Position numbers and translations under genes: made by a program
The notes under the pieces: model-generated
Databases searched by the model: none
Told to the model about the DNA's origin: nothing
Seen by the model: only the letters and a program-made list of their open reading frames with translations
Source: a virus
Lineage: Duplodnaviria > Heunggongvirae > Uroviricota > Caudoviricetes
Virus record (IMG/VR): IMGVR_UViG_3300011242_000001
Span: 50,439 to 114,438 of that record
Strand: one strand, 5' to 3'
Length of the DNA stretch: 64,000 nucleotides
Shown here: piece after piece, positions 32,915-58,775 of the stretch
Position numbering within the stretch: the stretch's first letter is position 1
Layout of the letters: each line of letters starts with the position of its first letter

Positions 32915-32946
32915 AAAAAAAAGGACCGCAAGGTCCTTTTTTTATG
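32915..32946. terminator. bidirectional rho-independent terminator (GGACC-gcaa-GGTCC)
   Basis: Hairpin flanked by an A8 run and a T9 run between convergent genes. Confidence 0.6.
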
Positions 32947-33415
32947 CTTTTTTAATAGATTTAACTATATTATATTCGGATTTAGTCGCTAATAATACAG
33001 TTTGCGGTGTTAAATGACCATTTGAATTTTTATAACTTAAAGATATTGTTCTACTATATCCGTATGTATCAGATGATTTTCCTTCTTGATGAGCAATCAA
33101 TGCGAAAGTATGAGCTCCTTTCTTATTTTCATTTGAGTCAACTAATTCATATCCTTTTTTAAGTAATTCAGCCGGCTTAGCCGATTTTAATACAGAAGAC
33201 TCTTCAATTGAATCTAAGAAATCACTATAATTATCCCATTTTGCATCAGATTTATTTTGTACTTTACTTTGTACTATATAATTAAAACCTTCTACTACGG
33301 CTTTAACTATTGTACCGTCATCTAATTCAATAGTTAATAGATCACCTTTATTGTAATTTGTAAATTTTACACTTTTATCATTCGATGATTCATTTAAAAA
33401 TTGTTCAAAATTCAT
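32942..33415 (-). CDS. putative capsid-targeted internal protein (CTS family), 157 aa
   Basis: N-terminus MNFEQFLNESS matches the window-wide MxFxxFLNE motif, which is analogous to the T4 CTS MKTYQEFIAE. Confidence 0.5.
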   Translation of the reverse strand: MNFEQFLNESSNDKSVKFTNYNKGDLLTIELDDGTIVKAVVEGFNYIVQSKVQNKSDAKWDNYSDFLDSIEESSVLKSAKPAELLKKGYELVDSNENKKGAHTFALIAHQEGKSSDTYGYSRTISLSYKNSNGHLTPQTVLLATKSEYNIVKSIKKA

Positions 33416-33486
33416 TTTTTATTGCTCAATAATATTTATATATATATATTTATATAATAAAATAACTTTTAATTAAGATTTAAAAA

Positions 33487-33510
33487 GGATGCAATATGCA
33501 TCCTTTTTTT
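33487..33510 (-). terminator. rho-independent terminator (GGATGCA-tat-TGCATCC)
   Basis: Hairpin with flanking A/T runs after the minus-strand gene 33512..33763. Confidence 0.5.
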
Positions 33511-33511
33511 A

Positions 33512-33763
33512 TTACTTATCGCTAAAGTGTTCAGCGATATATGATTTTAAATCTTCATTATCATCACATATATAAGTATCAAGATGTTTTTCACCTTTAA
33601 AGAGAATACATTCATATTCTCCTTTGTCAAATTCAGTAATATATAAAGAATGTGTGGAATTAGTAATTAAAGTTGCTTTACCAGTATGTACTTTTGCGGT
33701 GCTAGGTACTGCAGATTTAATAGCCGAAGTTGTAATTTCATTTAGGAAGTTAGTGAAGCTCAT
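33512..33763 (-). CDS. putative capsid-targeted internal protein (CTS family), 83 aa
   Basis: N-terminus MSFTNFLNEITT. Confidence 0.5.
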   Translation of the reverse strand: MSFTNFLNEITTSAIKSAVPSTAKVHTGKATLITNSTHSLYITEFDKGEYECILFKGEKHLDTYICDDNEDLKSYIAEHFSDK

Positions 33764-33856
33764 TTTTTATCTCTTTATTTACGTTATTATATTATTTTAT
33801 TTAATAGAGTTTTTTTTATTAAATAATAAAAAACCCCATACCAAAGGTATTAACAA

Positions 33857-34588
33857 ATGAATTTTGAACAATTTTTAAATGAAGCATCACCCGCGCGTGA
33901 ACGTACTGCTCGACTCACTTTTTCTAAAAAAGTAGCTGACGGGCTTGATAAAGCAGCGGGCGACCCAGAAAAAGAACGTCGCTTCGGTAAAGCTATTTTT
34001 AAAGAAATGTATAAAAAATATGGCGTCGGCTATGATCATTTATTAGATTCACTTGAAGGATCAACAGCTGAAAAATTAGAACAAGCAAATGCATGGGCTG
34101 CTTTAGAAGGTGTTCGCGATTTTTATGCTGAAAAAGGTGATACAAAAACAGCAGAATCTTATCAACGTACAATTGATAAAATGGATCGTGAAACTACTAC
34201 TAAAACCGGATCGGCTGCTTTAATTAAAAATATTATTGCGGCAATTAAACCAGGCGGTAAGTTTAACGAATTTGCCGAATATGATACTAACAAATTTGAT
34301 ATTGTTTTCCCAAAACATAGTCCAAAAACCACTGAAGTTAAAGAATCTGTTAGTAAAGCAACAGCGAACTTATATTTTCAGCATAAAACTACTACATATA
34401 AAAAAGTAAGTACAATATCATATATGGCGAATATTATTATTGCTTATAATGGACCTCGTGCTGGTGAAATTATGCATATCATTTATAATGATAACGGCGT
34501 CACAAAAATTAAAACATTCGGTACGGAAAATTTATTAGATGACGCTTTAAAAGGTACATTTAATAATAAAACGATTACAAAAGTTTAA
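33857..34588 (+). CDS. putative capsid-targeted internal protein (CTS family), 243 aa
   Basis: N-terminus MNFEQFLNEASP. Confidence 0.5.
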   Translation: MNFEQFLNEASPARERTARLTFSKKVADGLDKAAGDPEKERRFGKAIFKEMYKKYGVGYDHLLDSLEGSTAEKLEQANAWAALEGVRDFYAEKGDTKTAESYQRTIDKMDRETTTKTGSAALIKNIIAAIKPGGKFNEFAEYDTNKFDIVFPKHSPKTTEVKESVSKATANLYFQHKTTTYKKVSTISYMANIIIAYNGPRAGEIMHIIYNDNGVTKIKTFGTENLLDDALKGTFNNKTITKV

Positions 34589-34601
34589 AAAGTTTAAAAA
34601 A

Positions 34602-34622
34602 GGACCATTTGGTCCTTTTTAT
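34602..34622 (+). terminator. rho-independent terminator
   Basis: GGACC-attt-GGTCC plus TTTTT. Confidence 0.6.
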
Positions 34623-34718
34623 TTTACTGGTGAAAATCAGTTATTTTATAAAAATGTATATACAAATTTAATTTTATATATTATAATGATATCATATTCA
34701 ATCATAATGGTGATTAAA

Positions 34719-35027
34719 ATGAGATTAGTTCGTGAAGCTGCTGGTAAAGAATATAAAGGTAAACGTCATGCATTTCGTATCATTGGCGCTGCTGAAGATA
34801 AAGCTCGCATTGAGCATATTGAAGATCTACTTGGCCAATGTCTAACTGGTAATATGATGTTCTCTGAATACCACCAAAAAATGGTACCTGAAACTTATTA
34901 TCATCGTTACAGTGATTGGTGTGCCGGATGTGAATATTCTGGTGCTGGATGCGGTTGGTATGTTGATATCGAAGATATTGAAGAATTCAAAGCAAATTGG
35001 AATGATATTAAAAAGCGTATACAATGA
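34719..35027 (+). CDS. hypothetical Cys-containing protein
   Basis: ATG MRLVREAAGKEY; contains CAGCEYSGAGCGW. Confidence 0.4.
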   Translation: MRLVREAAGKEYKGKRHAFRIIGAAEDKARIEHIEDLLGQCLTGNMMFSEYHQKMVPETYYHRYSDWCAGCEYSGAGCGWYVDIEDIEEFKANWNDIKKRIQ

Positions 35028-35464
35028 AACTATTAGAAACTCATATGCATCATCAATATCCGGCACATTTTAAAGAATTGTGCCGTGAGCTTAATACTAA
35101 TACTATTAGTGATATTAATTCGCAATCAAATATATATTATGGTGATACCAATTTTTTACAAGAATTTGGTATCTATAAAAATCCTAAAGCATATGATACA
35201 ATAATTAGTCGTATCATTGGAAATATACCGCCTCATGTAGATAATTTAGAGGATTATTCAAAGAACGCATATCTTCTTGTATTAGATGTTAGTATAGGTA
35301 ATCAATATGTTGATTCTCAAAGTTTACCAATGTTATATCAAAATAAAGAATTTTTAGGCTTACGTAAAGGTGATCTAGTAGAATTTAATCAAAGAGCAAC
35401 ACATGCTTTATTTTGGGATCGGCGCATTGATATCGCCGTATTTTGGAAAAAAATTTATTATTAA
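35024..35464 (+). CDS. hypothetical protein (possible HxD...H double-stranded beta-helix oxygenase-like)
   Basis: PPHVDN then ATHALF about 40 aa later; speculative. Confidence 0.4.
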   Translation: MKLLETHMHHQYPAHFKELCRELNTNTISDINSQSNIYYGDTNFLQEFGIYKNPKAYDTIISRIIGNIPPHVDNLEDYSKNAYLLVLDVSIGNQYVDSQSLPMLYQNKEFLGLRKGDLVEFNQRATHALFWDRRIDIAVFWKKIYY

Positions 35465-35477
35465 GTGAGTATATGAT

Positions 35478-35921
35478 ATGGATCCAAAAAAAGTTGAAGA
35501 ATATTATGAAAAAATTCAAGAAGTAATTGAAAAATGTGGTTATGCAATCCAGGGCGTATTTGGCGACGGAAAACCTGTTTGCTATACAATTGGATTAACC
35601 CCATTACTTGGTGCTGAAATTCTTACCACTGCCCCAATATCATTAGATACATTATATCAAATGTTACGTACTAATATTGATGGCTTTATTAAAAATAATC
35701 AATCAATTCCTGATGATGTATTTTCAGGTGGCTATTTAAAAAATGGCGATGAATTGCGATGTAAATTGGTAGATGTATCTACAAATAAAGATGTACTAAA
35801 CTTTATAACTGTTCGTACTTGTAATGTAGATAAAGTTTATCAATTATATTTTGGCGATATTAATAATATTCTGCCAGGTGAAGACGGTTATGATAATAAC
35901 TTCGATCAAGAACTAAAATAA
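35478..35921 (+). CDS. hypothetical protein
   Basis: 147-aa ORF followed by a terminator. Confidence 0.45.
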   Translation: MDPKKVEEYYEKIQEVIEKCGYAIQGVFGDGKPVCYTIGLTPLLGAEILTTAPISLDTLYQMLRTNIDGFIKNNQSIPDDVFSGGYLKNGDELRCKLVDVSTNKDVLNFITVRTCNVDKVYQLYFGDINNILPGEDGYDNNFDQELK

Positions 35922-35925
35922 AAAG

Positions 35926-35948
35926 AGGCTAAAGCCTCTTTTTAAAAA
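35926..35948 (+). terminator. rho-independent terminator
   Basis: GAGGCTAAAGCCTC hairpin plus TTTTT. Confidence 0.6.
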
Positions 35949-35994
35949 CATTTTTTTCATCTGTATGAATATGATCTTCAATAATAGATATATT

Positions 35995-36411
35995 TTATGC
36001 GTCTTTTTCTTCGGTTGGTTTTAAATCTTCAATCAATTCACCAAGGTAACCATATAATTCATCTTTACCAAATTTCTTCTCTAATTCAGTAATGAACGCT
36101 TCAATATCTTTACCACCACCAGTAATAGGAGCGCCTTCATCGTCATTCACATCAACATCGCCATCTTGTGAAATACCAGCTTCTACTGTTACTGTACCCG
36201 TTTTGCCATCTTCAGTTGTAACTTCAAATTTAACTTTAGCTAAGTGGACTAATTCATCACCACCAAACTCATCATATGCTTCATCAGCATCGCCGTCAAA
36301 TCCACCAACTAAGCCATAACGAATAAATACATAGCTTTTAGCATATTTAAAAGCATTATCAAAAGCAGCGGTTGCACCTTTTGCTTCATTTAAAAAATCT
36401 GCAAATTTCAT
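35995..36411 (-). CDS. putative capsid-targeted internal protein (CTS family), Gly/Asp-rich, 138 aa
   Basis: N-terminus MKFADFLNEAKG. Confidence 0.5.
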   Translation of the reverse strand: MKFADFLNEAKGATAAFDNAFKYAKSYVFIRYGLVGGFDGDADEAYDEFGGDELVHLAKVKFEVTTEDGKTGTVTVEAGISQDGDVDVNDDEGAPITGGGKDIEAFITELEKKFGKDELYGYLGELIEDLKPTEEKDA

Positions 36412-36597
36412 TTTTATTAATCCTAATAATTTTAATAATATTATTTAATAAAAATAATGTACATTTATTTACAGCTATGTTATAAATACAACATGATAAA
36501 AGTCTTATGTAGTAATGCATACAGCCTGTCTTTATTATATCCGGACGCGAAAAATAGGATATAAGATGTGAATTGATAACATTCATGCAATCGAAAT

Positions 36598-37298
36598 TAA
36601 TAAAGTCTGGGCAACGACGACCCCTGTCGACCTAGGACGGTGATCCCACGAAAGTGGTTTACGGTAATCAACCACCTGAAGATGAAGAATCTAATATTAT
36701 TCCATATGAATATAAAATATTAGATTCAGTTATTATAAAGAATGATTGCACAGTTTTTATAATAACCGCCATACCAACAGTAATCTTCATATGATCGTCA
36801 TAGATCATAACTTATATAAGAATGATAAGATAAGCATTTAATTGGTTTATCTGAACTGTCTATATTATTTGGTGTCTAAGAGGCCGTAATAAGCTCTTAG
36901 AGGATATACATTCTACGGCAAAGAATGTGCTGAAAAGCAAGGCAAACTTAAAAGCAAGTCCATCTACAGGATTATGCGAGCATTGTTGGGCTCAACGTGG
37001 TTCTAATTAAATGAATGTGTAGATAATAGTTCATTTAAAGTAATTATCTTTTTATAAATTAAAATTTATAAATTGAATAAAGATAATATGCAATCTCATC
37101 ACTATTTGTCTTCGACAAAATGACACGACTTTCAGTCGGTCAAACTCCATATGAATTTATAGTTTATTAATTGATAATCATTTCTTTTAATATATTTTAA
37201 ATTAATTATATATAATCATTCTTTTTCTATTTTTAAATTCTAATTTTATAAAAAATATATTTTACTAGAATCACGGATATAAAGGGGTGAGTCATATC
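36598..37298 (-). ncRNA. ORF-free conserved structured element B (inverted homolog of element A at 7433-8045)
   Basis: The reverse complement aligns block by block with 7433-8045, including the conserved hairpin ACATTCT-ttgccgt-AGAATGT and a covarying CTAAGAG/CTCTTAG stem; no ORF over 60 aa; the 5' end (element orientation) abuts the divergent gene 37391. Confidence 0.45.
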
Positions 37299-37328
37299 TA
37301 AAAGAAAGTAAAAAAGAATATAAGAATA

Positions 37329-37356
37329 AATGTATATACAAATATAATAAAATATA
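37329..37356 (+). promoter_or_regulatory. promoter-like palindromic motif TGTATATACAAATATAAT upstream of 37391
   Basis: The same core recurs at about 4161, 20683, 27029, 29811, 34651, 38571, 48103 and 61097. Confidence 0.3.
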
Positions 37357-37390
37357 GTATTATTGCCTTTATTTTTTAAAGGATTTAGTT

Positions 37391-37954
37391 ATGCGTTATC
37401 TTGCAGCTTTTTTATCAATGCCTAATGCTGGTTCGTGGAATGGACGTTGGAGTGGTGAATCTAGACCATATGTATCATTAATTCGCGTATCAGAAGTTAA
37501 TAAAGCAAAAATGGAACGTCAATTATCAATCATTGGATCATATTACTATGATTTTGGTGATGGATGGGGTGCAAGCGTAAATATTAAAGAAGTAACCGAA
37601 AGTGAATATAAGCACTATAAAAAGATTACCGCTGGTTTTTCTGGTTATGACTGGATGGTTTCATCAATTATCAAGTATAAGCGTATCGTGAATTCAACGG
37701 AAAAGACCTTTTTAGATTTTAAAGAACTTGCAGAAAAACATTTAAACCATGTTGAATTAACTGATCATAACTGTTATGAAGAATTACGGTTTGATAATGG
37801 TCGTAATAAATTTAGCTTGCGCTTATATAATCAATATAATGATCATGCAAATGAACATATGTACTTATATGTAGATGGTCGTGAATATTGCAAAGTAACA
37901 AGTGCATCATTAAGCTTAATGGAAAGTCTTAAACATATGGCAGATGCGGCTTAA
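37391..37954 (+). CDS. hypothetical protein
   Basis: 187-aa ORF. Confidence 0.45.
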   Translation: MRYLAAFLSMPNAGSWNGRWSGESRPYVSLIRVSEVNKAKMERQLSIIGSYYYDFGDGWGASVNIKEVTESEYKHYKKITAGFSGYDWMVSSIIKYKRIVNSTEKTFLDFKELAEKHLNHVELTDHNCYEELRFDNGRNKFSLRLYNQYNDHANEHMYLYVDGREYCKVTSASLSLMESLKHMADAA

Positions 37955-38040
37955 TCAGTCGCATTTGATCCTAATTGATAAACATAGACAAACATATATG
38001 TTTTATTTAAAACTCCATATAGAGCGAATGGGAAGATCTA

Positions 38041-38247
38041 ATGACTCATAGAAAAATTAATATTAAAGACTTTATTAAATTAAAAGGCGAGCGCAAAGCT
38101 AAAAAGATATTTTTAGGGCGTGGCACATTAACTACATATATGTGGTATGAATATAATTTAGAAACAGGTCAGGGTCAAAATATTTATATTTGTATTGATG
38201 AATTATGTAAATATTTTGAACAGGTAATTAAAAATGAAACTATTTGA
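38041..38247 (+). CDS. small hypothetical protein
   Basis: 68-aa ORF. Confidence 0.35.
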   Translation: MTHRKINIKDFIKLKGERKAKKIFLGRGTLTTYMWYEYNLETGQGQNIYICIDELCKYFEQVIKNETI

Positions 38248-38290
38248 AGAAATTCAAATTTTAATATCTAAAAGTATAGGTGAATAAATT

Positions 38291-38569: not shown

Positions 38570-38570
38570 T

Positions 38571-38606
38571 ATGTATATACAAATACATTTATATGTTTTA
38601 TAATGC
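38571..38606 (+). promoter_or_regulatory. promoter-like ATGTATATACAAATACATTT...TATAAT upstream of the dexA-like gene
   Basis: Core palindrome plus TATAAT 30 nt before the RBS. Confidence 0.3.
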
Positions 38607-38635
38607 CATCAACATATTTATAAAAGGAAAAGAAT

Positions 38636-45217: not shown

Positions 45218-45322
45218 CTTTGTCGCTAAACACATGAACGATGTTTGTAAACCTGCTGTCATGATCGATCGCAAGAAAGATTCTAAAAAAGGTAAACAAA
45301 AACATAAAGTAAACTACAAAAA

Positions 45323-45343
45323 GGACCTTAATCGGTCCTTTTA
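45323..45343 (+). terminator. rho-independent terminator
   Basis: GGACC-ttaatc-GGTCC plus TTTT. Confidence 0.55.
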
Positions 45344-45401
45344 ACATTTATAGTAAAAGCAAAAAGTCTCATACTAAATAACAATAAAAAGGTATTCTCA
45401 A

Positions 45402-45800
45402 ATGAGTTTTGAACAATTTTTAACTGAAGCAGCTGAACCGCCATATGAAACAGTTAATACGGATCAATTAAATGTTTTACGTCAAGAGATTGATCGCAGC
45501 GCATTACGTGTAGAATTAAATAAAAAGTATATTGATAAATCTGATCTTAATATTAGTTTATTTAATAATGACTATTATATTGGTGGCATGCGATTAGATA
45601 ATGATGATAATGTTATTGTTAAAGTTGCAATTATAGTTGAAGTAACGGAAGAGGACGGTTATTTATATTATAAGATAGCAAATATTGTATATGATATCAA
45701 TCAAAATAAAATTATTAAGATAATTGAAAATGATAAGATTCGTGATGAAAATTGGAAAACAGTTCAAGGCGAAATTTTAAAAACCGCCATTAAATTATAA
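45402..45800 (+). CDS. putative capsid-targeted internal protein (CTS family), 132 aa
   Basis: N-terminus MSFEQFLTEAAE. Confidence 0.5.
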   Translation: MSFEQFLTEAAEPPYETVNTDQLNVLRQEIDRSALRVELNKKYIDKSDLNISLFNNDYYIGGMRLDNDDNVIVKVAIIVEVTEEDGYLYYKIANIVYDINQNKIIKIIENDKIRDENWKTVQGEILKTAIKL

Positions 45801-46547: not shown

Positions 46548-46762
46548 TATAAATAAAAATAATATGGAAATAAATTAACTTATACTAATACTTATACCGG
46601 CGAACGTGATTCAGTACAAAGTTTTGAACGCGAATTTACAAATATAAATTTTAATAATACGCGTCTTGTTGGATTTAGTAATGATTTAAACTGTCCAATT
46701 AATGATAATTCTGTTATATATACTGCAAAAATCATTAAATAATTGTAAAAAAAGAGAATACT

Positions 46763-47410
46763 ATGAAATTTGCAGACTTTCTATTAGAAGCGCCATTACC
46801 AGATACTTGGGATAAAGACAAGTTTAAAGGCAGGCTTGACTTTAAAGGTATGGTTGAATACGCATTAGAACGCTCAAAATCTTTAGGTGAAGGCTCATCA
46901 CGTGTTGCATTTAATATTGAATATAAAGGTCGTGAAACAGCTTTAAAAATTGCAAAGAATCCAAAAGGCGTTGCTCAAAACGTACAAGAAATATTGTACT
47001 TAAATGATGAAAAAATTAAAAAACTTAATATCACAATCCCTTTAATTGATTATGATACAACCAACCATAAAGCACGTTGGTTACATACAGAAAAAGCTGA
47101 TAAAATTCATGACGCATATTTTGAAGAAGAATTAGGTTTACCTTTGCGGGACGCAATTCTTTATATTAACCGTGATATTAATCCACCAAAGTTGTCAATA
47201 GGTTCTAAATTACAAGCCGAACGAGGCGAAAAGCTTAAAAAAGATTCCCCTATCGTTAAAGCAATCTATAAATTATTAACAGATTTTCCAGAAATTGGTT
47301 ATGGTGATTTAGCTCGCATTCAAAATTGGGGTATGTATAAAGGGCACCCGGTTATTTTAGATATCGGATATGATTCAACCTCGGCAGTATTATATAAGTT
47401 GGCAAAATAA
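46763..47410 (+). CDS. CTS-bearing protein-kinase-like (RIO/KdoK/APH-type fold) protein
   Basis: N-terminus MKFADFLLEA; LGEGSSRVAF (Gly-rich loop), TALKIAK (beta-3 Lys), YGDLARIQNWGMYKGHPVILDIGYD (HGDLxxxN catalytic loop followed by IDFG-like metal-binding Asp); 215 aa. Confidence 0.55.
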   Translation: MKFADFLLEAPLPDTWDKDKFKGRLDFKGMVEYALERSKSLGEGSSRVAFNIEYKGRETALKIAKNPKGVAQNVQEILYLNDEKIKKLNITIPLIDYDTTNHKARWLHTEKADKIHDAYFEEELGLPLRDAILYINRDINPPKLSIGSKLQAERGEKLKKDSPIVKAIYKLLTDFPEIGYGDLARIQNWGMYKGHPVILDIGYDSTSAVLYKLAK

Positions 47411-47847
47411 TGAAATTTGTAGATTTTTTAAATGAAGTTAAGCTTTATAGAGGTGGGGTAATTCCACCTGGTAAAACACTTATTTGGTATACAGAAGATT
47501 CAGATTTTGCAACAACTTATAGTCATTTAAAAGGTGACTTTGTATTTCATGAATTAGATGCCGATTTATCAAAATACAATATATGTGATATTGGCAGAAT
47601 TGAAAATGTAACCAGTATGACATATTTATGCGGCATTTTATGGAAGTATGCTAATATTAAGGATAAAGAAATTTTTGATAAAGCTAAAAAATTGATGCAA
47701 GAAATACGAGGGTCTAGTAAAGATCATTTACATCAATTGATATTCAAAGAGCCTAGATTTATTGACTATATGAAATTATTAAAAATAGATGGTATTAAAG
47801 CAACGGAAAACAAATCTGTAACATATGGTTTTATTAATAAGCTATAA
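47410..47847 (+). CDS. putative capsid-targeted internal protein (CTS family), 145 aa
   Basis: N-terminus MKFVDFLNEVK; ATGA-coupled to the upstream gene. Confidence 0.5.
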   Translation: MKFVDFLNEVKLYRGGVIPPGKTLIWYTEDSDFATTYSHLKGDFVFHELDADLSKYNICDIGRIENVTSMTYLCGILWKYANIKDKEIFDKAKKLMQEIRGSSKDHLHQLIFKEPRFIDYMKLLKIDGIKATENKSVTYGFINKL

Positions 47848-47852
47848 AAAAA

Positions 47853-47870
47853 GGACCGTGAGGTCCTTTA
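47853..47870 (+). terminator. hairpin GGACC-gtga-GGTCC (weak T tract)
   Basis: Same hairpin family as the other terminators, but followed by only TTTA. Confidence 0.4.
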
Positions 47871-47890: not shown

Positions 47891-48115
47891 TTATAGCAGG
47901 CCTAATCTGCATCTCTGCATCTCTGCAATACAACCAGGCTCTAAAGGATATTTATCAATATTCCACTCAAAATTCGCCATAAAGGTGGTACCTTGATAGA
48001 TCAAGAAATTTTTAATTAGCGGTTTAAGTATCATTTTTTTAATGTCCTTTTTACTCTTATTTAATAAAAAAGCTATATACTTATATAAAGTCACGTTATA
48101 TAATTGTATATACAA
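47891..48115 (-). CDS. small hypothetical protein (doubtful)
   Basis: 74-aa ORF in an intergenic segment that also contains a CTGCATCT x2.5 tandem repeat. Confidence 0.25.
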   Translation of the reverse strand: MYIQLYNVTLYKYIAFLLNKSKKDIKKMILKPLIKNFLIYQGTTFMANFEWNIDKYPLEPGCIAEMQRCRLGLL

Positions 48116-48568: not shown

Positions 48569-49189
48569 ATGGTAAAATATTACGCTGGGATTGGTAGTAG
48601 AGAAACGCCACCTGACATTTTTAAATTGATGACAGAAATAGCTTCAATTTTAGAAGTAAATAACTTTATTTTAAGAAGTGGCGCTGCGACAGGTGCGGAT
48701 ACCGCATTTGAATCTGGTATATCTGATTTTAAAAATATGAATTTATTTTTACCCAAGCCAGTATTTAATGATCATAATTGGTATGATAAAGGCTGTATTT
48801 ATATAAATGATACACACCCAAATTATCAAGCTGCATATGATAGTATCATTATTCATCCAGCTGGATTTAAATTATCACTAGGTCCCCGCAATATGATGAT
48901 CCGAAATTATTTCCAAGTAATGGGTATTAATGACGAACCAATATCTTCATTTGTTATATGCTGGACACCAGATGGAGCTGATGGTATTACTAAGCTAACA
49001 TCGCGTGAAACTGGTGGAACGGGTCAGGCCATAAGGATAGCAAGTAAGTATAATGTGCCGGTTTATAATTTAAATAGTGATTATGGTGAAATGGATGCAC
49101 AATCGATTGTTGATATGATTTTGAAAAACCTGAATGAGGGTATTAACCCTCATATCAGAATTCAACGAAAGACAACTTCACTTTTTTAA
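48569..49189 (+). CDS. DprA/Smf-like (SLOG superfamily) Rossmann-fold protein
   Basis: YAGIGSRETP...LRSGAATGADTAFESG matches the DprA/LOG-type GxGSR...SGxAxGxD nucleotide-binding pattern. Confidence 0.45.
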   Translation: MVKYYAGIGSRETPPDIFKLMTEIASILEVNNFILRSGAATGADTAFESGISDFKNMNLFLPKPVFNDHNWYDKGCIYINDTHPNYQAAYDSIIIHPAGFKLSLGPRNMMIRNYFQVMGINDEPISSFVICWTPDGADGITKLTSRETGGTGQAIRIASKYNVPVYNLNSDYGEMDAQSIVDMILKNLNEGINPHIRIQRKTTSLF

Positions 49190-49935
49190 AGTATTTCTAA
49201 AAACTCTTCCCAACGGTCGAGTAAAACAGCTACGCATGGTCCACCAATCCAAAATTCACATTTTCCGTGAATTTTGGATATCTCATTTGACTTAATAGCG
49301 GTAAAGTTTAATTGCTTTGGGTCATATGTATATGACAAATATTTTTCAACATTATTAACATCATGTTTAAATAGTTCTGCCACAAATTCTTCTTGACTAC
49401 TACTATTATCATTAATATTTTCAATAATATGTTTAATATCGCGTACTATTGATTCATAACTACTTGAATCAATATTGCATTCTAAAAATAGGGTGTTATA
49501 TTGTTCTAAATCACCAAAGTCATCACCAATAGATGTTTCAGTCATCCAGATATCAGGCTTATTAACGCATCCAATAATAGTATCGTCATAAGGTAATATT
49601 ACATACATATTATCGCCAAATATTTTTGCTTGACGTTTATTGCTAATATTAGTACAAATAATAGAAGCCGATCTTAATGGTAAATTTGATTTAGTTTTTT
49701 TAATAAAATGATCGATCATTACAGTGTAATAATTACCATTACTATCTTTATTGCGGGATTCACGATTGCCTTTTTGTCCTTCAAATATATAGTATTGTCC
49801 AGTATTATTAGCTCCACGAATAATATAATTATCTTTATCAATATGGGAGCAATGTTTTTTTACAAGCTCAATAGCTTCGGCTTGTGTTATTGTTGTTCTG
49901 TATGAAGATTCATTTAAAAAAGTTAAAAAATCCAT
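49186..49935 (-). CDS. putative capsid-targeted internal protein (CTS family), 249 aa
   Basis: N-terminus MDFLTFLNESSY. Confidence 0.5.
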   Translation of the reverse strand: MDFLTFLNESSYRTTITQAEAIELVKKHCSHIDKDNYIIRGANNTGQYYIFEGQKGNRESRNKDSNGNYYTVMIDHFIKKTKSNLPLRSASIICTNISNKRQAKIFGDNMYVILPYDDTIIGCVNKPDIWMTETSIGDDFGDLEQYNTLFLECNIDSSSYESIVRDIKHIIENINDNSSSQEEFVAELFKHDVNNVEKYLSYTYDPKQLNFTAIKSNEISKIHGKCEFWIGGPCVAVLLDRWEEFLEIL

Positions 49936-50009
49936 TGTATTTTCTCAAAGGTATATACGTTTATTTATTCATAAGGTATAATTGCACCATTATGTAAGGG
50001 TCAATTAAT

Positions 50010-52698: not shown

Positions 52699-52701
52699 TA
52701 A

Positions 52702-54060
52702 ATGAATAGTAATAAAGTATTTGAATCATTACAGGAAATCGCACAAACATCTGCGACTAGTCAAAAACAGCAGCTTGTTGCATCATTTATTGAGAATGAG
52801 CAATTTCGATTGGCTGTTGAATATGCTTTTAATCCTCATAAAGTTTATGGTATTATTCCAGAACATAGCTGGATTACTACTAATGGTACTGCTGTATTTG
52901 ACGAAACTACTTATACTTTATTGAATTCATTAATTGAACGCAAATTAACTGGTAATGCTGCTCGTGAGGCTATTCGCCAAGAATTAAGTCGCTTGCAAGC
53001 TGAATCAGCAAATCTTTTAGTTGATATTATTAAAAAAGACTTGCGAGCAGGTTTTTCTGAAAGTACAGTGAATAAGGTATATAAGGATTTAATTCCTGAA
53101 TATAGCTATATGCGTTGTAGCACTTTAACAAAAATTAAGCCGGCAAAATTTAATTGGAAAAAAGGTGTTTTTTCTGAGCTTAAATTAGATGGTATGTATG
53201 CTAACGGTAATATCCTTGATGATCTACAATTTGTATCACGACAAGGTTCGGTTATGCCAATGGAGCATTTCCAAAATATTGCCAATAGTGTTAAACATAT
53301 TAATGGCTATCAAACGCATGGTGAGCTTCTTGTAAAACAAGATGGTAAAATTTTACCCCGTACTACTTCGAACGGTATTTTAACATCTGTTATGAAAGGT
53401 GGTAAATTTGAAGATAATCAAGTACCAGCTTATGTAGTATGGGATATTATTCCAATTGAATTTGCAAAGAAAAAAGGTAAATACAAAGTACCTTATCATA
53501 AGCGTTTAGAATTACTTGAAGAATTATTTGCAGAAAATTCATATATTGACGTTGTAGAATATAAAGTTGTATATTCTCTACAAGAAGCAGTTCAACATGC
53601 GATGGAGCTTATTACTTTAGGTCATGAAGGCTCTGTATTTAAAGACCCAGATATGCCTTGGGAAGATGGTACAAGTAAATGGCAAGTAAAAGTAAAAATT
53701 GAATTTGAAAGCGATTTAGAAATTGTTGAAATCATTCCAGGTCGAGTCGGAACAAAAGTAGAAGGTCGTCCTGCAGCATTATTATGCAGATCATCAGATA
53801 ATGCATTATCAGTATCAGTTGCTGTTAAAAATGATAAAATGCGTGACACTATTGAAAAAGATCCAAGCGATTGGATTGGTCGTATTGTACCAGTGGTAGC
53901 AAATGATTTAATGCTACCAGGCGATAATAATAAATTACATAGCTTATTTTTGCCTCGCTTATCACAAGCTGTATATCGTGTTGATAAGTCTACAGCGGAT
54001 GATATTGGGCGTATTAAAGATAGCTTAGAAGCGGCTAAACAAGGCGTCGTATTAGAGTAA
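52702..54060 (+). CDS. 30: ATP-dependent DNA ligase (T4 gp30-like)
   Basis: ERKLTGNAAREAI matches T4 ligase TRKLTGNAAIEEL; SELKLDGMYANGNI contains the KxDG adenylation motif; AAGG RBS; 452 aa. Confidence 0.8.
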   Translation: MNSNKVFESLQEIAQTSATSQKQQLVASFIENEQFRLAVEYAFNPHKVYGIIPEHSWITTNGTAVFDETTYTLLNSLIERKLTGNAAREAIRQELSRLQAESANLLVDIIKKDLRAGFSESTVNKVYKDLIPEYSYMRCSTLTKIKPAKFNWKKGVFSELKLDGMYANGNILDDLQFVSRQGSVMPMEHFQNIANSVKHINGYQTHGELLVKQDGKILPRTTSNGILTSVMKGGKFEDNQVPAYVVWDIIPIEFAKKKGKYKVPYHKRLELLEELFAENSYIDVVEYKVVYSLQEAVQHAMELITLGHEGSVFKDPDMPWEDGTSKWQVKVKIEFESDLEIVEIIPGRVGTKVEGRPAALLCRSSDNALSVSVAVKNDKMRDTIEKDPSDWIGRIVPVVANDLMLPGDNNKLHSLFLPRLSQAVYRVDKSTADDIGRIKDSLEAAKQGVVLE

Positions 54061-54104
54061 TAAAGAATATGGGGTATAATACCCCATTCTTTTTGGAGAA
54101 ATAA

Positions 54105-54452
54105 ATGCACATTTATGAATTTCAATATGATTTTGGTCCATATGAAGGAAATTATGTTTTCTTTTTAAAACAAGGATCATCTAGCACTAAAGAATTTCGT
54201 CAAAATGCAATTAATCATTGCAAAAAACTTATTGAAGATGAATTAGCATCTGAACAAAATTTAATGTTAGAATATAGTAAACATTATCCAAATGAAGATA
54301 CTACATCTATGTTTAATCATTCTTTATCATCGTTACAAGAAAAATTGGATGATTTAAATAATCATATTGAAGTTTTTATAGAGACTGGTAGTGCTTATAT
54401 TAGTACATACCGCAATATAAGATTAATCCAGCGTGAGCTTTTAATATTATGA
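54105..54452 (+). CDS. hypothetical protein
   Basis: 115-aa ORF. Confidence 0.4.
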   Translation: MHIYEFQYDFGPYEGNYVFFLKQGSSSTKEFRQNAINHCKKLIEDELASEQNLMLEYSKHYPNEDTTSMFNHSLSSLQEKLDDLNNHIEVFIETGSAYISTYRNIRLIQRELLIL

Positions 54453-54943
54453 AAACTATTATTATTGAAATAGATATTCCAGATTTTGAAGAAATTCAAG
54501 CGCCAGCATCATGGAAAACTGATGTTGGTGTATTTGACAATATGTTGGATATTTATGCAATTGAATCCACAATTAATTATTTTAAAAATAATAACGACCG
54601 TGATTATTTAATTAATGCTCACCACGATATCCGAAAATTATTAGTTAAAGGTTTATTGGAACGTAATGCCCCATACGGTTCTACTTTAAGTGATAATCAT
54701 CATTTAGTTGAAGCCATTAGTTCATTGATTTTTGGATTCCGTAATGGAACCGGATATAAAATTGATGACTATACCTTTACATGGGATGAATATTGTAAAG
54801 GAACTAAAATTTCTATTCCTGGTACTAATTATATATATGATAGTGTTGATAAATTAGTAGAAACTGCAGTATCTAATTATACGCGATCCGGTCACTTTAA
54901 TAGTAAAATGTTCAAATATAAATTGATTGAAAAAGAGGCTTAA
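54449..54943 (+). CDS. hypothetical protein
   Basis: 164-aa ORF followed by a terminator. Confidence 0.45.
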   Translation: MKTIIIEIDIPDFEEIQAPASWKTDVGVFDNMLDIYAIESTINYFKNNNDRDYLINAHHDIRKLLVKGLLERNAPYGSTLSDNHHLVEAISSLIFGFRNGTGYKIDDYTFTWDEYCKGTKISIPGTNYIYDSVDKLVETAVSNYTRSGHFNSKMFKYKLIEKEA

Positions 54944-54958
54944 GCCTCTTTTTTTAAC
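54935..54958 (+). terminator. rho-independent terminator
   Basis: GAGGCTTAAGCCTC hairpin plus TTTTTTT. Confidence 0.6.
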
Positions 54959-55025
54959 TATAAATAAATGTTTATTTTTTATAAAATATAGTAAAATTAG
55001 ATATTAGTTGAATAGGAAAAAGATT

Positions 55026-55745
55026 ATGCCGGCAGGACAATATAGTAAAGAGATTACACATAATACAGGTCGTGTATTTGTAATCGGTGATTTACATGGT
55101 GAAATCGATAAACTTTATGCGGCTATGGAATCTGTTAATTTTAATTATGATGAAGATATTATTATTGCGGTTGGTGACCTGGTAGATAGAGGCCCTAAAT
55201 CACTTGAATGCTTTAATTTAATTTATAAATCATGGTTTAAAACTGTTCGTGGAAATCATGAACAATTTTGTTTAGATCGTGTATATGGTAGCACACCCGC
55301 AAATATTCATGAAGGTAATGGCGGAGAATGGTTTAGTTATTTACCTGAAGATGTGCAAGTTAAAATTGCTGATGAAGTAGAACAATTGCCGATCGTATTG
55401 ACATTAAATAGAAATAATAAAAGATATGGCTTTGTGCATGGTGATATTCCAATTATTATTAAAGATTGGAATGAATTAGTATCGTTTTTAAGTGGTCCAT
55501 CAAAAGATACATATGCGACTCAATGCTTATGGGGCCGAACTCGTATTAAGCAAACCATGAACACCCCATTATCATTAAAGGCTAGTATTGATAATATTGC
55601 ATCAGTGAGAAATGTCGACCAAATTTATATTGGTCATACTGTTATTAAAGATATAAAAACATTAGGTAATATGACATTCATTGATACAGGCGCATGTTTT
55701 GATAATTTTGGTTACGGTAAATTAACAATTATAGAGCTAGAATAA
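55026..55745 (+). CDS. Ser/Thr protein phosphatase (PP-lambda / calcineurin-like metallophosphoesterase)
   Basis: VIGDLHGE (GDxHG), VGDLVDRGP (GDxxDRG), RGNHE (GNHE), later HGD and GHT motifs; AGGA RBS; the track start at 55008 is a TTG. Confidence 0.7.
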   Translation: MPAGQYSKEITHNTGRVFVIGDLHGEIDKLYAAMESVNFNYDEDIIIAVGDLVDRGPKSLECFNLIYKSWFKTVRGNHEQFCLDRVYGSTPANIHEGNGGEWFSYLPEDVQVKIADEVEQLPIVLTLNRNNKRYGFVHGDIPIIIKDWNELVSFLSGPSKDTYATQCLWGRTRIKQTMNTPLSLKASIDNIASVRNVDQIYIGHTVIKDIKTLGNMTFIDTGACFDNFGYGKLTIIELE

Positions 55746-56057
55746 ATGGTTATAACATTACTTTTTATTTTATTGTTAGTAAGTGGTTTAGCATTCTTAT
55801 TTCTTAAAAAAAGAAATAAAAAAATTAAAATATCTAATCCACTTAATAATGATTCACAACATTATTATATGTTTAATTTAGATGATTATAATTTTCTTAT
55901 ATATGTAACATCAACAGAAAAAATGCAAGAAGACAAGATTCAAAGCATAAAATATACTATTATAGAGAAGCTAAATATAACTAAAGACGTTAGCAATGAA
56001 ATCGGCGTCAGCTATTTAGGTTATATTTCAGAAACTGAATTTAAGAGTAAAAATTAA
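55746..56057 (+). CDS. small membrane-anchored protein
   Basis: N-terminal TM helix VITLLFILLLVSGLAFLFL. Confidence 0.4.
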   Translation: MVITLLFILLLVSGLAFLFLKKRNKKIKISNPLNNDSQHYYMFNLDDYNFLIYVTSTEKMQEDKIQSIKYTIIEKLNITKDVSNEIGVSYLGYISETEFKSKN

Positions 56058-56248
56058 TGCATCTAGGTTATCTTGTAGTACATAGAAGTGGTACAGATTC
56101 AGAAATTTATAGAATTAGTAAATTTAATGATGATGATACTTGCGAAATAATTTCGTATGTTAATGGTCGTGTAAAAACATTATCTATATCCCAATTACGT
56201 GAAGCTGATGATATTGAAGTCATGATTGGTAGCAGGATGAAAAAATGA
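56057..56248 (+). CDS. small hypothetical protein
   Basis: 63-aa ORF with overlapping start/stop couplings. Confidence 0.3.
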   Translation: MHLGYLVVHRSGTDSEIYRISKFNDDDTCEIISYVNGRVKTLSISQLREADDIEVMIGSRMKK

Positions 56249-56580
56249 AATTTAGTGATTATATTGCTGAAGCAAAAGAACAATATACGTTATACGTAGA
56301 TAAAAAACAAACAGTTGTACTTGATGATGCACCACCGTGGATTGATCATCGTAATGATGATTATGAAAAATATGTTGAAGTATATATTAAAGTAAAAGGT
56401 AATGATAAAGATAAAATTGCTTTATTAGTTGGTGTTAATATTGACGACGGTGAATATACGGTTATTGATACAAATATTCATGTTGATAAAGACAATAAAG
56501 ATCTTTTAAAATTCGTTAAATTAAGCACAGAACAAATTGAAGATTTATCTAAAGAAGAAGCTGAAACCGCAACCTCTTAA
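56245..56580 (+). CDS. putative capsid-targeted internal protein (CTS family), acidic, 111 aa
   Basis: N-terminus MKFSDYIAEAKE (IAE exactly as in the T4 CTS). Confidence 0.45.
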   Translation: MKFSDYIAEAKEQYTLYVDKKQTVVLDDAPPWIDHRNDDYEKYVEVYIKVKGNDKDKIALLVGVNIDDGEYTVIDTNIHVDKDNKDLLKFVKLSTEQIEDLSKEEAETATS

Positions 56581-56677
56581 AATCTTTCTATTTATTTTAT
56601 ATAAATACGTGTTATAGTTAAGTGTCTCTTACGGGACACTTAAATTTTTGTAAATTAAAATATATAATGGTAAATAA

Positions 56678-58498
56678 ATGAGTGAATTTAAAATTCTGAG
56701 TGAGCGTGATCATATCAGAACTAGAAGTGCGATGTATATCGGCTCAATTACATCGGAAGAAATTTCTGGTATTTTAAATTTTAAATATCAGACTAAAAAA
56801 TATATTCCTGGCCTAGTTAAAATTATTGAAGAAATTTATCAAAACTCGGTTGATGAAGCTATTCGTACTAATTTTGAATTTGGCAATGAAATTACAGTTA
56901 CTATTAAAGATGACTTTATTAACGGTTGGTTCGTTGAAGTCAATGATAATGGTCGGGGTATTCCAACTAAACAAATAGATGGCAAATATCAAGCTGAATT
57001 ATCTTGGACTCGAGCTCGTGCAGGTTCTAATTTTAGTGATGATAATCGTACTACAATCGGTATGAACGGTATCGGCAGCTATTTAACAACATGTTTTTCA
57101 AAACAATTTGTTGGCCAATCATGCGATGGAAAAATTAACGTAATTGTTAAATGTCTAAATGGTTGTGAAACAATTGAAACTACAGTTGAAAAGTCTAAAT
57201 CACGCGGTACAAACGTAAAATTTTATCCGGACTTAAAACTCTTTAATACAAAAACTATTGATAAAGAATTAATTGATCTTATTGAAGATCGACTAATGAA
57301 CTTAGCAATTTGTTATCCTAAAGTAACTTTTAAATTTAATGATAAAAAATTATCTATTAAAAATTCTACTCAATTAGCTAAGTCTTTCCATGAAAGTGCA
57401 TTGGCATTTGATGACGAAAATTTTAATATGGTTGTTGCTCCAGCTGGAGATGATGAAGAATTCCGTCATTTATCCTTCTTTAATGGTATTGCTATTAAAA
57501 ACGGTGGTAATCATATTGATTATTTTATCGGTGGTTTATGTAATGAATTAATTCCACTTATTAAACGTAAATGGAAAATTGAAGTATTACCTAACCAAAT
57601 TAAACAACATTTATTATTGGCATTTTGGGTACGTAATTTCCCTAATCCTAAATTTGATTCGCAGTCTAAAGAGCGTATCACAAATACGATTGGTGAAATT
57701 AAAACATTCATGGATTTAGACTTCAATAAAATTGCTAAGAAAATTTTAGCAACTGACGAAATCATTATGCCGGCAATTGATTCAATTCTTCGTAAAAAAG
57801 AAGCTATTGAAAAGCGTGCAGCCACTAATGCATTGAAGAAAGTTCAAAAGAAAAAGATTGCAAATCATATCGCTGCAAATGATAAAGATCCGGAAAAGAA
57901 AACTCTTTATATCGCAGAAGGTTTATCTGCTTCAGGCATGGGCCTTTCTGTACGTGATCCAAAATATCATGGGTTCTATTCTTTACGGGGTAAAGTATTA
58001 AACACACATGATATGTCGGCTTATGACATTCTTAAAAATAAAGAATTAGCTGAATTGCTTGCTATTATTGGATTGGATTTAAGTGATCCAGAAATATTGG
58101 AATCTGAATTGAACTACGGTAAAATTGCAGGCTTACAAGATATGGACCCGGATGGTAATGCGATCTTCTGTTTATTATTAATGTTCTTCTCTCGTTGGCC
58201 ACAACTATTTAAAGATAAACGTATTTTACGTGTTCAAACTCCTTTATTTGTAGCAAAGAAAAAAGGCAAACCAGCAAAGTATTATTATACGTTTGAAGAA
58301 TATGAAAATACGTCCGATAACTTAACTGGATATGAAATTACATATATTAAAGGTCTTGGATCTTTAGAAAAAGAAGACTATAAAGAAACTGTAATTGTTA
58401 ATCCACGCTTTATTGCAGTTACACTAGATGACATTGAAAAATTAAATATGACATTTGGTAATTCCGCTGATGCTCGTAAAGAGTGGATGATGGGATAA
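56678..58498 (+). CDS. 39: DNA topoisomerase II large subunit (GyrB-like; T4 gp39 and gp60 equivalents fused)
   Basis: ILSERDHIRTRSAMYIGS, NSVDEA, NDNGRGIP (GHKL ATPase); Toprim region (YIAEGLSASG, DMDPDGN) in the same ORF; 606 aa. Confidence 0.85.
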   Translation: MSEFKILSERDHIRTRSAMYIGSITSEEISGILNFKYQTKKYIPGLVKIIEEIYQNSVDEAIRTNFEFGNEITVTIKDDFINGWFVEVNDNGRGIPTKQIDGKYQAELSWTRARAGSNFSDDNRTTIGMNGIGSYLTTCFSKQFVGQSCDGKINVIVKCLNGCETIETTVEKSKSRGTNVKFYPDLKLFNTKTIDKELIDLIEDRLMNLAICYPKVTFKFNDKKLSIKNSTQLAKSFHESALAFDDENFNMVVAPAGDDEEFRHLSFFNGIAIKNGGNHIDYFIGGLCNELIPLIKRKWKIEVLPNQIKQHLLLAFWVRNFPNPKFDSQSKERITNTIGEIKTFMDLDFNKIAKKILATDEIIMPAIDSILRKKEAIEKRAATNALKKVQKKKIANHIAANDKDPEKKTLYIAEGLSASGMGLSVRDPKYHGFYSLRGKVLNTHDMSAYDILKNKELAELLAIIGLDLSDPEILESELNYGKIAGLQDMDPDGNAIFCLLLMFFSRWPQLFKDKRILRVQTPLFVAKKKGKPAKYYYTFEEYENTSDNLTGYEITYIKGLGSLEKEDYKETVIVNPRFIAVTLDDIEKLNMTFGNSADARKEWMMG

Positions 58499-58503
58499 AA
58501 AAA

Positions 58504-58525
58504 GGACCGTGAGGTCCTTTTTTAT
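58504..58525. terminator. bidirectional rho-independent terminator (GGACC-gtga-GGTCC)
   Basis: Hairpin with A-run/T-run between convergent genes. Confidence 0.6.
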
Positions 58526-58538
58526 TTTACAAGTTTTA

Positions 58539-58775
58539 TTACTTACTCATTTCTTTTTCGTATTTTTCAATATCTTCCATGGAAAGCCATTCAGGTTTTT
58601 TATCCAATGCGTTCCATAATTCTTTCATTTTTTCAATTTGTTCTTTAACACTGCCAGCCCATAAACTTGACTCAGAACGACCACCAGCTTTTAAAAAATA
58701 TTCACAGTCGCTTCGTAAACGACTCAATAACATATAATCGCCTTTGCTTTCATTTAAAAAGTCTTGAAAATTCAT
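58539..58775 (-). CDS. putative capsid-targeted internal protein (CTS family), 78 aa
   Basis: N-terminus MNFQDFLNESKG. Confidence 0.45.
   Translation of the reverse strand: MNFQDFLNESKGDYMLLSRLRSDCEYFLKAGGRSESSLWAGSVKEQIEKMKELWNALDKKPEWLSMEDIEKYEKEMSK

Follow-up and report, generated by a model that had tools for sequence, protein, structure and literature searches.

Predicted capsid-targeting leaders of the T4 type on a diversified set of proteins in an uncultivated, distant relative of phage T4

T-even phages package unrelated internal proteins in their heads by means of a shared N-terminal signal, and their hypervariable ip genes are recognised by it (PMC3012670, PMC9026906, PMC9391042, PMC12373910). 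This capsid targeting sequence (CTS), MKTYQEFIAE, is carried by Ip1 (IPI), Ip2, Ip3 and Ip4 (Mullaney & Black 1996; Repoila et al. 1994; reviewed in PMC9026906, PMC3012670 and PMC12373910). The first 10 residues of IPIII are enough for packaging, and in amber-suppression mutagenesis of the T4 CTS residues 4 and 7 proved to control targeting, residues 8 and 10 processing (PMC9026906). Ip1-3 are injected inhibitors of GmrSD-type restriction (PMC12373910). A comparable leader was examined on at least ten proteins encoded in a 64,000-nucleotide stretch of an uncultivated tailed phage (positions 50,439 to 114,438 of IMG/VR record IMGVR_UViG_3300011242_000001; hereafter the window). The preliminary description of the window took this leader to be a T4-type capsid-targeting and processing signal on a diversified set of head-packaged, injected proteins. 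All available tests were supportive, and that interpretation is very probably right.

As in the T-even internal proteins, a leader of about 10 residues is attached to unrelated proteins, its targeting positions are aromatic, and a small residue comes directly after its terminal (L/I)-x-E; one of the window proteins is a true Ip4 homolog, and gene content is hypervariable between strains. The window leader is, however, nine rather than 10 residues long, with the consensus M[KN]FxxFLNE, and at least 10-11 members lie within 45 kb, against three in T4 and about 10 across all T-evens. The window members are dispersed as single-gene late-type units, often antisense, whereas the T-even genes occupy two Ip loci, and their cargo (the protein behind the leader) includes a kinase-like enzyme and an LPD11 domain. 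The phage itself is remote, with about 46% topoisomerase identity to T4-like phages and a relative represented by a 281-kb contig (L029).

Three further systems invite comparison. T4 Alt is an injected ADP-ribosyltransferase, delivered from the head and trimmed by gp21, and so sets an example for cargo that is an enzyme, as the kinase-like protein is predicted to be. The statement in the preliminary description that Alt carries MKTYQEFIAE was inexact, as Alt of RB32 begins MELITELFDE, which is not a CTS; nor was similarity detectable between Alt and any of the cargo (hhalign probability 0.2%). The polyvalent proteins of phages and conjugative elements (PF18824) share LPD11 and deliver conflict-related domains with the incoming DNA, but in the window LPD11 is a stand-alone mature protein of 69 residues behind a predicted cleavable leader and not a module of a giant protein. 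The ejection proteins of giant phages (SPN3US/phiKZ) are likewise many, head-internal, cleaved by the prohead protease and ejected, but they use another cleavage motif and long, non-uniform propeptides, with no short common leader.

A nine-residue leader on unrelated proteins

Ten strong members of 78-249 aa were present as the preliminary description had listed them, each beginning at the first start codon that follows an in-frame stop. They are given here with a probable eleventh; a slash marks the predicted cleavage site.

Gene 1, 32942-33415, minus strand: 157 aa, MNFEQFLNE/S; Ip4 homolog.
Gene 2, 33512-33763, minus strand: 83 aa, MSFTNFLNE/I; ORFan, mature protein of 8.3 kDa and pI 5.4.
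Gene 3, 33857-34588, plus strand: 243 aa, MNFEQFLNE/A; basic ORFan, pI 9.25.
Gene 4, 35995-36411, minus strand: 138 aa, MKFADFLNE/A; very acidic ORFan (pI 4.2, 31 Asp and Glu in 129 residues).
Gene 5, 45402-45800, plus strand: 132 aa, MSFEQFLTE/A; acidic ORFan.
Gene 6, 46763-47410, plus strand: 215 aa, MKFADFLLE/APLPD; predicted minimal protein-kinase-like enzyme, phrog_4301.
Gene 7, 47410-47847, plus strand: 145 aa, MKFVDFLNE/VKLYRGG; translationally coupled to gene 6.
Gene 8, 49186-49935, minus strand: 249 aa, MDFLTFLNE/S; very large uncharacterised phage family phrog_12810.
Gene 9, 56245-56580, plus strand: 111 aa, MKFSDYIAE/A; acidic ORFan, last gene of the four-gene operon 55008-56580.
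Gene 10, 58539-58775, minus strand: 78 aa, MNFQDFLNE/S; past the leader, exactly one LPD11 domain (polyvalent-protein-associated domain 11).
Probable eleventh member, 14259-14645, plus strand: 128 aa, GTG start, MSFVEFLKNETELINE/S; longer leader ending I-N-E/S, with I-N-E at residues 14-16.

The leader M-x-F-x-x-[F/Y]-[L/I]-x-E is common to all ten. Met1, Phe3 and Glu9 are invariant, residue 6 is Phe in nine and Tyr in one, residue 7 is Leu in nine and Ile in one, and residue 10, the first of the predicted mature protein, is Ala, Ser, Val or Ile. Among the 98 called open reading frames (ORFs; 18,487 residues) the core F..[FYW][LIVM].E occurred 10 times exactly at residue 3 and three times internally, where 0.016 occurrences at residue 3 were expected by chance (Poisson P ~3e-25). 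A looser scan admitting GTG and TTG starts returned 22 cores in ORFs; 11 of these lay exactly two codons past a start, and they coincide with the full list of the preliminary description, including 14259-14645. That protein, proposed there as an additional member, has the core at its N-terminus and is a plausible, probable eleventh, but its L-x-E is broken at the usual place by a one-residue insertion. A pattern match at 46592-46735 (minus strand) belonged to a spurious ORF of 47 aa and was excluded. The mature parts were unrelated, the best match in an all-against-all BLASTP having E = 0.15.

Mean pairwise nucleotide identity was 0.74 across the 27-nt leader and 0.31-0.40 on either side. Codon positions 1, 2 and 3 were conserved alike (0.72-0.77), and conservation ended exactly at codon 9. 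An extended DNA repeat or a duplicated 5' region was ruled out, the flanks being no more alike than background. Conservation could nevertheless act at the level of the nucleic acid, with the leader serving to enhance translation initiation or as a site of recombination in cassette exchange, and the peptide incidental. The leader DNA is A+T-rich, and that of genes 1 and 3 is identical, which creates a perfect 27-nt inverted repeat (33415/33857) on opposite strands around gene 2, a potential substrate for inversion or gene conversion. Three neighbouring leaders of L029 (MKFSEFLNE) are identical at the DNA level as well, suggesting gene conversion, and regulatory cassettes of the promoter-early stem-loop (PeSL) type mediate shuffling in T4-like phages (PMC2839356). 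The even conservation of the codon positions and its abrupt halt argue the other way. So do the use of different codons for the same peptide (for example ATGAGCTTCACTAACTTCCTAAATGAA in the window and ATGACATTCTCTCAATTTCTAACGGAA in the Xanthomonas jumbo phage Xoo-sp13) and the behaviour of the kinase-like and 249-aa families, in which the leader varies by lineage yet [LIV]xE is always kept. Selection on the nucleic acid is judged extremely unlikely as the primary explanation; recombination at the leaders may well occur, but as a consequence of the likeness. The window orthologs of the three L029 genes differ from each other in their leaders, a contrast suggestive of leader homogenisation inside a single genome. 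Two of the three tandem L029 genes (10001 and 11096) start with TTG, their leader DNA being otherwise identical.

Comparison with the T4 signal and with homologs in other phages

The product of gene 1 matched DUF7412 (Pfam E 1.7e-25) and phrog_3155, 'internal virion protein' (PHROG E 8.9e-25). Full-length tblastn homologs, annotated as Ip4 or internal virion protein, adjoin gene e in 470 T4-like genomes. BLASTP aligned the protein over its full length with Ip4 of RB32 (34% identity, E 4e-28), whose N-terminus is MKTYQEFITE/AA, and placed FEQFLNE against YQEFITE; the window leader therefore corresponds to the T4 CTS minus one residue. In this register, T4 residues 4, 7, 8 and 10 become Phe3, Phe6, Leu7 and Glu9, all invariant or conservatively substituted. 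The targeting positions (Tyr4 and Phe7 in T4) are aromatic in 10 of 10 members, and Leu or Ile at position 7 and Glu at position 9 are present in all ten, so that the fit to the (L/I)-x-E cleavage rule noted in the preliminary description was borne out. The gp23 maturation site of RB32 is SFLTE65/A66 and its gp22 begins MLKEQLIAE/A; FL[N/T]E/[A/S] is accordingly a T4-type gp21 maturation site by its residues. M-x-F-x-x-F-L-x-E is thus in all likelihood the lineage's own version of the CTS, shortened by one residue. An AlphaFold2 model of the kinase-like member gave a predicted local distance difference test score (pLDDT) below 50 for residues 1-9 and was confident elsewhere (mean 89.7), a profile that fits a flexible propeptide.

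Short N-terminal tags have many possible uses, and packaging in this phage is itself a deduction; the shared N-terminus might instead be an address or regulatory tag unconnected with the prohead, recognised by a protease or chaperone or serving localisation, with no packaging in the capsid. A secretion signal was ruled out from the sequence, as the leader is too short at nine residues, acidic and devoid of a hydrophobic core. Other tags of this kind are hard to reconcile with the positional homology to the T4 CTS in the Ip4 homolog, with a leader whose last residues are the same as the gp21-type cleavage site in gp23, or with the homologs bearing analogous leaders in Atu_ph07 virions (see below), and a non-prohead function is considered very unlikely.

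The N-termini of scaffold proteins were also seen to resemble the leader of the same phage's packaged proteins. In RB32 (L155 1658-2467, 2486-4051) the pair is the gp22 start MLKEQLIAE/A and the CTS MKTYQEFIAE; in Alishewanella phage Slickus01 (L032 47473-48282) it is the scaffold start MKEDLKQLFESVVLNE and the leader MKIDNLYESLLEE of that phage's own battery of tagged genes. The scaffold N-terminus may be what the CTS imitates, or where it came from.

Homologs of two cargo families support a capsid-targeting leader that is exchanged between lineages while its junction is kept. The kinase-like family comprised 106 homologs, nearly all with a short, variable leader ending in [L/I/V]-x-E, and in more than 100 of them [LIV]xE immediately precedes the conserved mature start [A/S/T/V/G]-P-[L/I]-P-x-x-W-D. 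The leader reads (MP)MTFSQFLTE/APLPD in Xoo-sp13 and MKIDNLYSTLLE/APLPD in Slickus01, where the gene is the last in a battery of at least seven that share MKIxxLYESLLEE. Slickus01 has a T4-type cluster of portal, protease, scaffold and capsid genes. In this published 141-kb genome the battery (L010 124-4609 and L032 302-1267; leader MKI[ED]xLYESLLEE) is annotated as hypothetical throughout, and the mature part of several members begins GISP[IV]V[FY]H[SA]T. The virion proteomics of XacN1 do not mention the kinase homolog ORF170 (PMC5852040), so the kinase family stands without experimental virion evidence.

The 249-aa family of gene 8 contained 3127 clusters at 50% identity (E<=1e-3). Among its top 147 representatives, 138 had [LIVM]xE within the first 16 residues, the motif ending at residue 9 in 68 cases and at residue 10, the T4 leader length, in 29 (for example MITFKQYLQE); Leu7 and Glu9 were at least 90% conserved in 90 diverse members. 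Agrobacterium jumbo phage Atu_ph07 encodes six tandem paralogs of this cargo, gp054-059, with the leader M[RK]W[EQH]QL[TN]E, and all six were identified in virions by electrospray-ionisation tandem mass spectrometry (ESI-MS/MS), gp56 with 11 unique peptides and 46.6% coverage (PMC6102473 Table S5). At least one cargo family is therefore experimentally virion-associated, by way of its Atu_ph07 homologs. The virion proteome of Atu_ph07 includes gp53-65 (L154 583-5957); the array resembles a large set of leader-tagged packaged proteins, and the source paper does not describe it as one.

A 158-kb IMG/VR contig carries five MxFxxFL[NT]E genes together with a T4-type protease, scaffold and major capsid protein, and these three head proteins are encoded by Slickus01 and Atu_ph07 as well. 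Matches in a strict DNA pattern scan of metagenomes were mostly due to chance in A+T-rich DNA, only 34 of 124 lying at ORF starts, and the scan is no evidence alone. The LPD11 homolog of Aeromonas phage Aeh1 has no leader (MSYIQEVIATRP...), which marks the leader as an add-on module. From these sequences it is taken to be a modular, lineage-specific addition with a conserved cleavage-type junction.

Cargo proteins and the arrangement of their genes

In the kinase-like protein, Gly42, Gly44, Lys62, Glu76 and Asp200 were invariant and Asp182 and Asn188 at least 90% conserved among 49 sequences, a set that corresponds to the Gly-rich loop, VAIK Lys, alphaC Glu, catalytic Asp/Asn and DFG-like Asp. 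The top 50 Foldseek matches in the PDB were protein kinases bar one aminoglycoside phosphotransferase, at E ~4e-4 and TM values of only 0.35-0.43; structural relatives included uncharacterised proteins of RaK2 and CBB, and Pfam gave zero matches. The model and the conserved residues predict a protein-kinase-like enzyme with a bilobal fold. Gene 7 has close homologs only, which in relatives always adjoin the kinase gene, and its AlphaFold2 model was poor (pLDDT 59); LYRGG...TYS...ENK in its sequence invites the speculation that it could be an R-S-E ADP-ribosyltransferase. For the family of gene 8, sequence searches of Pfam and the PDB were negative and hhalign detected no resemblance to Alt, so that an ADP-ribosyltransferase reading of it was unsupported. 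Gene 10 matched Pfam PF18824 over residues 11-76 of 78 (E 2.5e-32, 111.2 bits against a cut-off of 27). NCBIfam returned nothing significant for any tagged member.

The five remaining cargos are ORFans, without phage homologs where tested (tblastn gave zero phage matches for 33857-34588, 45402-45800 and 35995-36411), with mature masses of 8-26 kDa and pI values of 4.2-9.3. The cargo is in sum a mixed arsenal: an Ip4 homolog, a predicted kinase-like enzyme and its 145-aa partner, an LPD11 protein, a member of the virion-associated 249-aa family, and acidic and basic ORFans.

Such proteins might be packaged and processed and yet serve chiefly to build the head core or to condense DNA in it, in line with proposals on IPIII in T4 head morphogenesis, and not as injected effectors. 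T4 IPIII mutants have head-assembly defects and internal proteins co-purify with gp22 (PMC9026906), several window members are basic (pI 8.8-9.3), and the leader resembles scaffold N-termini. A structural role sits poorly, however, with a kinase-like protein whose catalytic residues are intact and with LPD11, which is typical of conflict proteins; gain and loss of members between near-identical strains misfits essential structural functions, and T4 Ip1-3 are all anti-restriction factors (PMC12373910). A mainly structural set is thought improbable, and injected effectors are the preferred reading.

The tagged genes share a common anatomy of a T4-late-type promoter motif (TAAATA core), a Shine-Dalgarno sequence, the leader, unrelated cargo and often a terminator hairpin, and each such unit may function autonomously. 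Several units lie antisense within early or replication gene blocks. TAAATAA occurred at -50..-12 in 7 of 10 CTS genes and in 2 of 88 other ORFs (Fisher p = 3e-7) and was the top enriched 7-mer. The upstream motifs were as follows.

33433-33454, minus strand: two canonical T4-late-type TATAAATA boxes upstream of gene 1, the eighth gene with a late-type motif.
33776-33825, both strands: divergent promoter-like region of genes 2 and 3, with ATTAAATA at 33798-33805 (minus) and 33818-33825 (plus) and CGTAAATA at 33776-33783 (minus).
36442-36449, minus strand: ATTAAATA upstream of gene 4.
45373-45380, plus strand: ACTAAATA upstream of gene 5.
46734-46741, plus strand: ATTAAATA upstream of genes 6 and 7.
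49962-49969, minus strand: AATAAATA upstream of gene 8.
58801-58812, minus strand: ACTAAATA and AATAAATA upstream of gene 10.
14234-14241: AATAAATA upstream of the probable eleventh member.
54959-54966: TATAAATA ahead of the operon 55008-56580 that ends in gene 9.

In L029, (T/C/A)ATAAATA stands upstream of large structural genes and of the operon of three CTS genes. Half of the CTS genes (5/10) lie on the minus strand, against 6/76 of the others, an excess that echoes the opposite orientation of the T4 late genes. By analogy with T4 the TAAATA-type motif would be a late-promoter-like element; its enrichment, the same motif class at the L029 structural genes and the strand bias together make late transcription of the tagged genes likely.

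Stem-loops were more frequent in the window than expected (15 against 6.3), and stereotyped, often bidirectional hairpins of the AAAAAGGACC...GGTCCTTTTT type bracket the tagged units.

32916-32943, both strands: bidirectional terminator-like hairpin AAAAAAAGGACC-GCAA-GGTCCTTTTTTT after gene 1.
33482-33508: terminator-like hairpin between genes 1 and 2.
34597-34620, both strands: bidirectional hairpin AAAAAGGACC..GGTCCTTTTT after gene 3.
35919-35944, minus strand: terminator-like hairpin after gene 4.
45319-45342: hairpin AAAAGGACC..GGTCCTTTT just upstream of the gene 5 unit.
47850-47869: hairpin AAAGGACC..GGTCCTTT after gene 7, at the junction of a strain-specific deletion.
47891-48115, minus strand: truncated remnant of a 118-aa gene, at the site of a kinase paralog (MKFADFLNE/APLPDNWDK) and a 158-aa gene in strain L002.

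A near-identical strain, IMG/VR 3300008122_000194, has a second leader-tagged kinase paralog and two further genes that are deleted in the window, where the junction is a terminator hairpin at a AAAAAGGA microhomology and the truncated gene remnant was left behind. This arrangement recalls the PeSL cassettes of RB49/phi1 (PMC2839356), in which single ORFans are also bracketed by a stereotyped promoter and a stem-loop and strain indels fall at those elements. A PeSL couples a sigma-70-like early promoter to its stem-loop, whereas the enriched element upstream of the window genes is the late-type TAAATAA and sigma-70-like sites were not enriched (116 against 134 expected); the window units differ from PeSL cassettes in that respect, and their shared module reaches into the coding sequence. 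The preliminary description had suggested cassette shuffling, for which the bidirectional hairpins flanking the units and the strain-level loss of a CTS gene provide partial support.

Source phage and possible role of the tagged proteins

The window has a G+C content of ~30% and carries genes for replication and recombination of the T4 type (a family-B DNA polymerase split in two, UvsX, DNA ligase, and the large and medium subunits of topoisomerase II), together with one for a Pif1-type helicase. No GenBank phage has a topoisomerase large subunit more than 46-47% identical to the window protein, the best matches being in Yersinia and Acinetobacter T4-likes, and a megablast of the topoisomerase region against GenBank phages gave zero matches. 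The species is present repeatedly across public metagenome assemblies. L029, whose kinase gene is 93% identical to the window copy, encodes a T4 gp13-like neck protein. The T4-type genes, the low topoisomerase identity and this 281-kb relative place the window phage, as judged from sequence, as an uncultivated and distant member of the T4 superfamily, possibly of jumbo size. The only recognisable structural gene in the window is a gp80-like fibre gene (16122-16556, minus strand), with TAAATA upstream of it. Tblastn with Slickus01 head proteins over the comparison loci gave matches on unrelated contigs only, and a look-up of the left-most protein of the window returned no record.

Several other genes were noted. 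The family-B DNA polymerase is encoded by two non-adjacent genes in reversed order, 22835-24769 (plus) and 11090-12352 (plus), the exonuclease and N-terminal polymerase part lying 10.5 kb downstream of the C-terminal polymerase part; the split gp43 genes of Aeh1, Acinetobacter phages and Slickus01 are, unlike these, adjacent. Three genes (20748-21941, 60322-61044 and 61158-62273) together hint at a pathway to a non-canonical base, for example 2-aminoadenine. They encode a PurA/PurZ-like homolog of adenylosuccinate synthetase (Pfam E 6.5e-36), a pyrophosphohydrolase resembling MazG/PRA-PH, and a protein in which a long N-terminal extension precedes a dCMP-deaminase domain. Such a pathway, if real, would bear on what the injected proteins must counter. 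Directly upstream of the first CTS cluster are a YqiJ-like membrane protein (30429-31031) and a 593-aa flotillin/SPFH protein (YqiK-like, 31122-32903). The window also encodes TelA (2803-4104), a NADAR domain (28816-29343) and a DnaJ-domain protein (17211-18236). About 7.8 kb past its right end, in loci L003-L008 of the same phage, lies the large subunit of a class I ribonucleotide reductase with an intein (Pfam Intein_splicing), which varies among strains from 944 to 969 aa; in the same loci a RelB-like antitoxin-domain ORF follows the Pif1 helicase.

Several observations weigh against the tagged proteins being packaged, cleaved and injected. IPII and IPIII are basic, but half of the mature proteins here have acidic pI values of 4.2-5.5. 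The 64-kb window contains no genes for prohead protease, scaffold or capsid, and the co-occurrence of a gp21-type protease is deduced from relatives; presence in the virion and N-terminal cleavage are likewise predictions for the window phage. The Atu_ph07 proteomics used phage purified with polyethylene glycol (PEG), and some non-structural proteins were also identified (PMC6102473), so that virion association there is good evidence and not proof of an internal location. The TAAATA-type motifs are short in a genome of 70% A+T, which makes the late-promoter assignment one of enrichment and analogy rather than mapping, and genes 47410-47847 and 56245-56580, both internal to operons, lack a promoter of their own. 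An anti-defence role is proposed by extension from T4 Ip1-3, and none of the cargo proteins resembles a known inhibitor.

The following mechanism would accommodate the observations. The tagged genes would be transcribed late, and during prohead assembly Phe3 and Phe6 would dock their products onto the scaffolding core. A gp21-type prohead protease would then cut after L/I-x-E9 to leave mature proteins of 8-28 kDa inside the head, and at the next infection these would be ejected with the DNA and be active ahead of any phage gene expression. With at least 10 unrelated genes carrying a nine-residue version of the CTS, the head is probably pre-loaded with many proteins that are injected with the DNA. 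By analogy with T4 Ip1-3, their most likely roles are host takeover and the neutralisation of first-line defences.

This is, with high probability, an unusually large example of a known T4 mechanism and not a new mechanism. What is new is the expansion, with at least 10-11 tagged genes in part of one genome where T4 has three; the dispersal of these genes as single-gene late-type units inside replication regions; the nine-residue leader variant in a very distant lineage; and the types of cargo, chiefly the kinase-like enzyme and the stand-alone LPD11. IMG/VR fragment 3300008122_000197 brings two more leader-bearing ORFs to the count for the genome. No paper describing these families as leader-tagged or packaged was found in the literature searched.

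A wider generalisation is more tentative. The CTS could be a general address label, tunable by lineage, across the T4 superfamily including jumbo phages, one that mimics the scaffold N-terminus, is homogenised within each genome and accepts interchangeable cargo on mobile late-promoter/terminator cassettes; this is judged somewhat less likely than not. If it were true, the kinase-like family, with more than 100 homologs that all have a cleavable leader, would comprise the first head-packaged protein kinases co-injected with DNA, and the 249-aa family of some 3,000 clusters would be a major unrecognised class of injected effectors.

Proteins injected with the DNA act ahead of phage gene expression and are therefore the first response to restriction and other immediate defences, and the demonstration that all three internal proteins of T4 specifically inhibit GmrSD is recent. 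At least 10 leader-tagged genes in one phage provide a ready list of candidate takeover and anti-defence effectors, including an enzyme class, the kinase-like proteins, with no earlier link to head packaging. The nine-residue tag may also find use in engineered cargo delivery in non-coliphage systems. Applied to public metagenomes as a simple annotation key, [aromatic]-x-x-[aromatic]-[L/I]-x-E at residues 3-9 or 4-10 picks out thousands of proteins of uncultivated T4-superfamily and jumbo phages that are probably packaged in the head.

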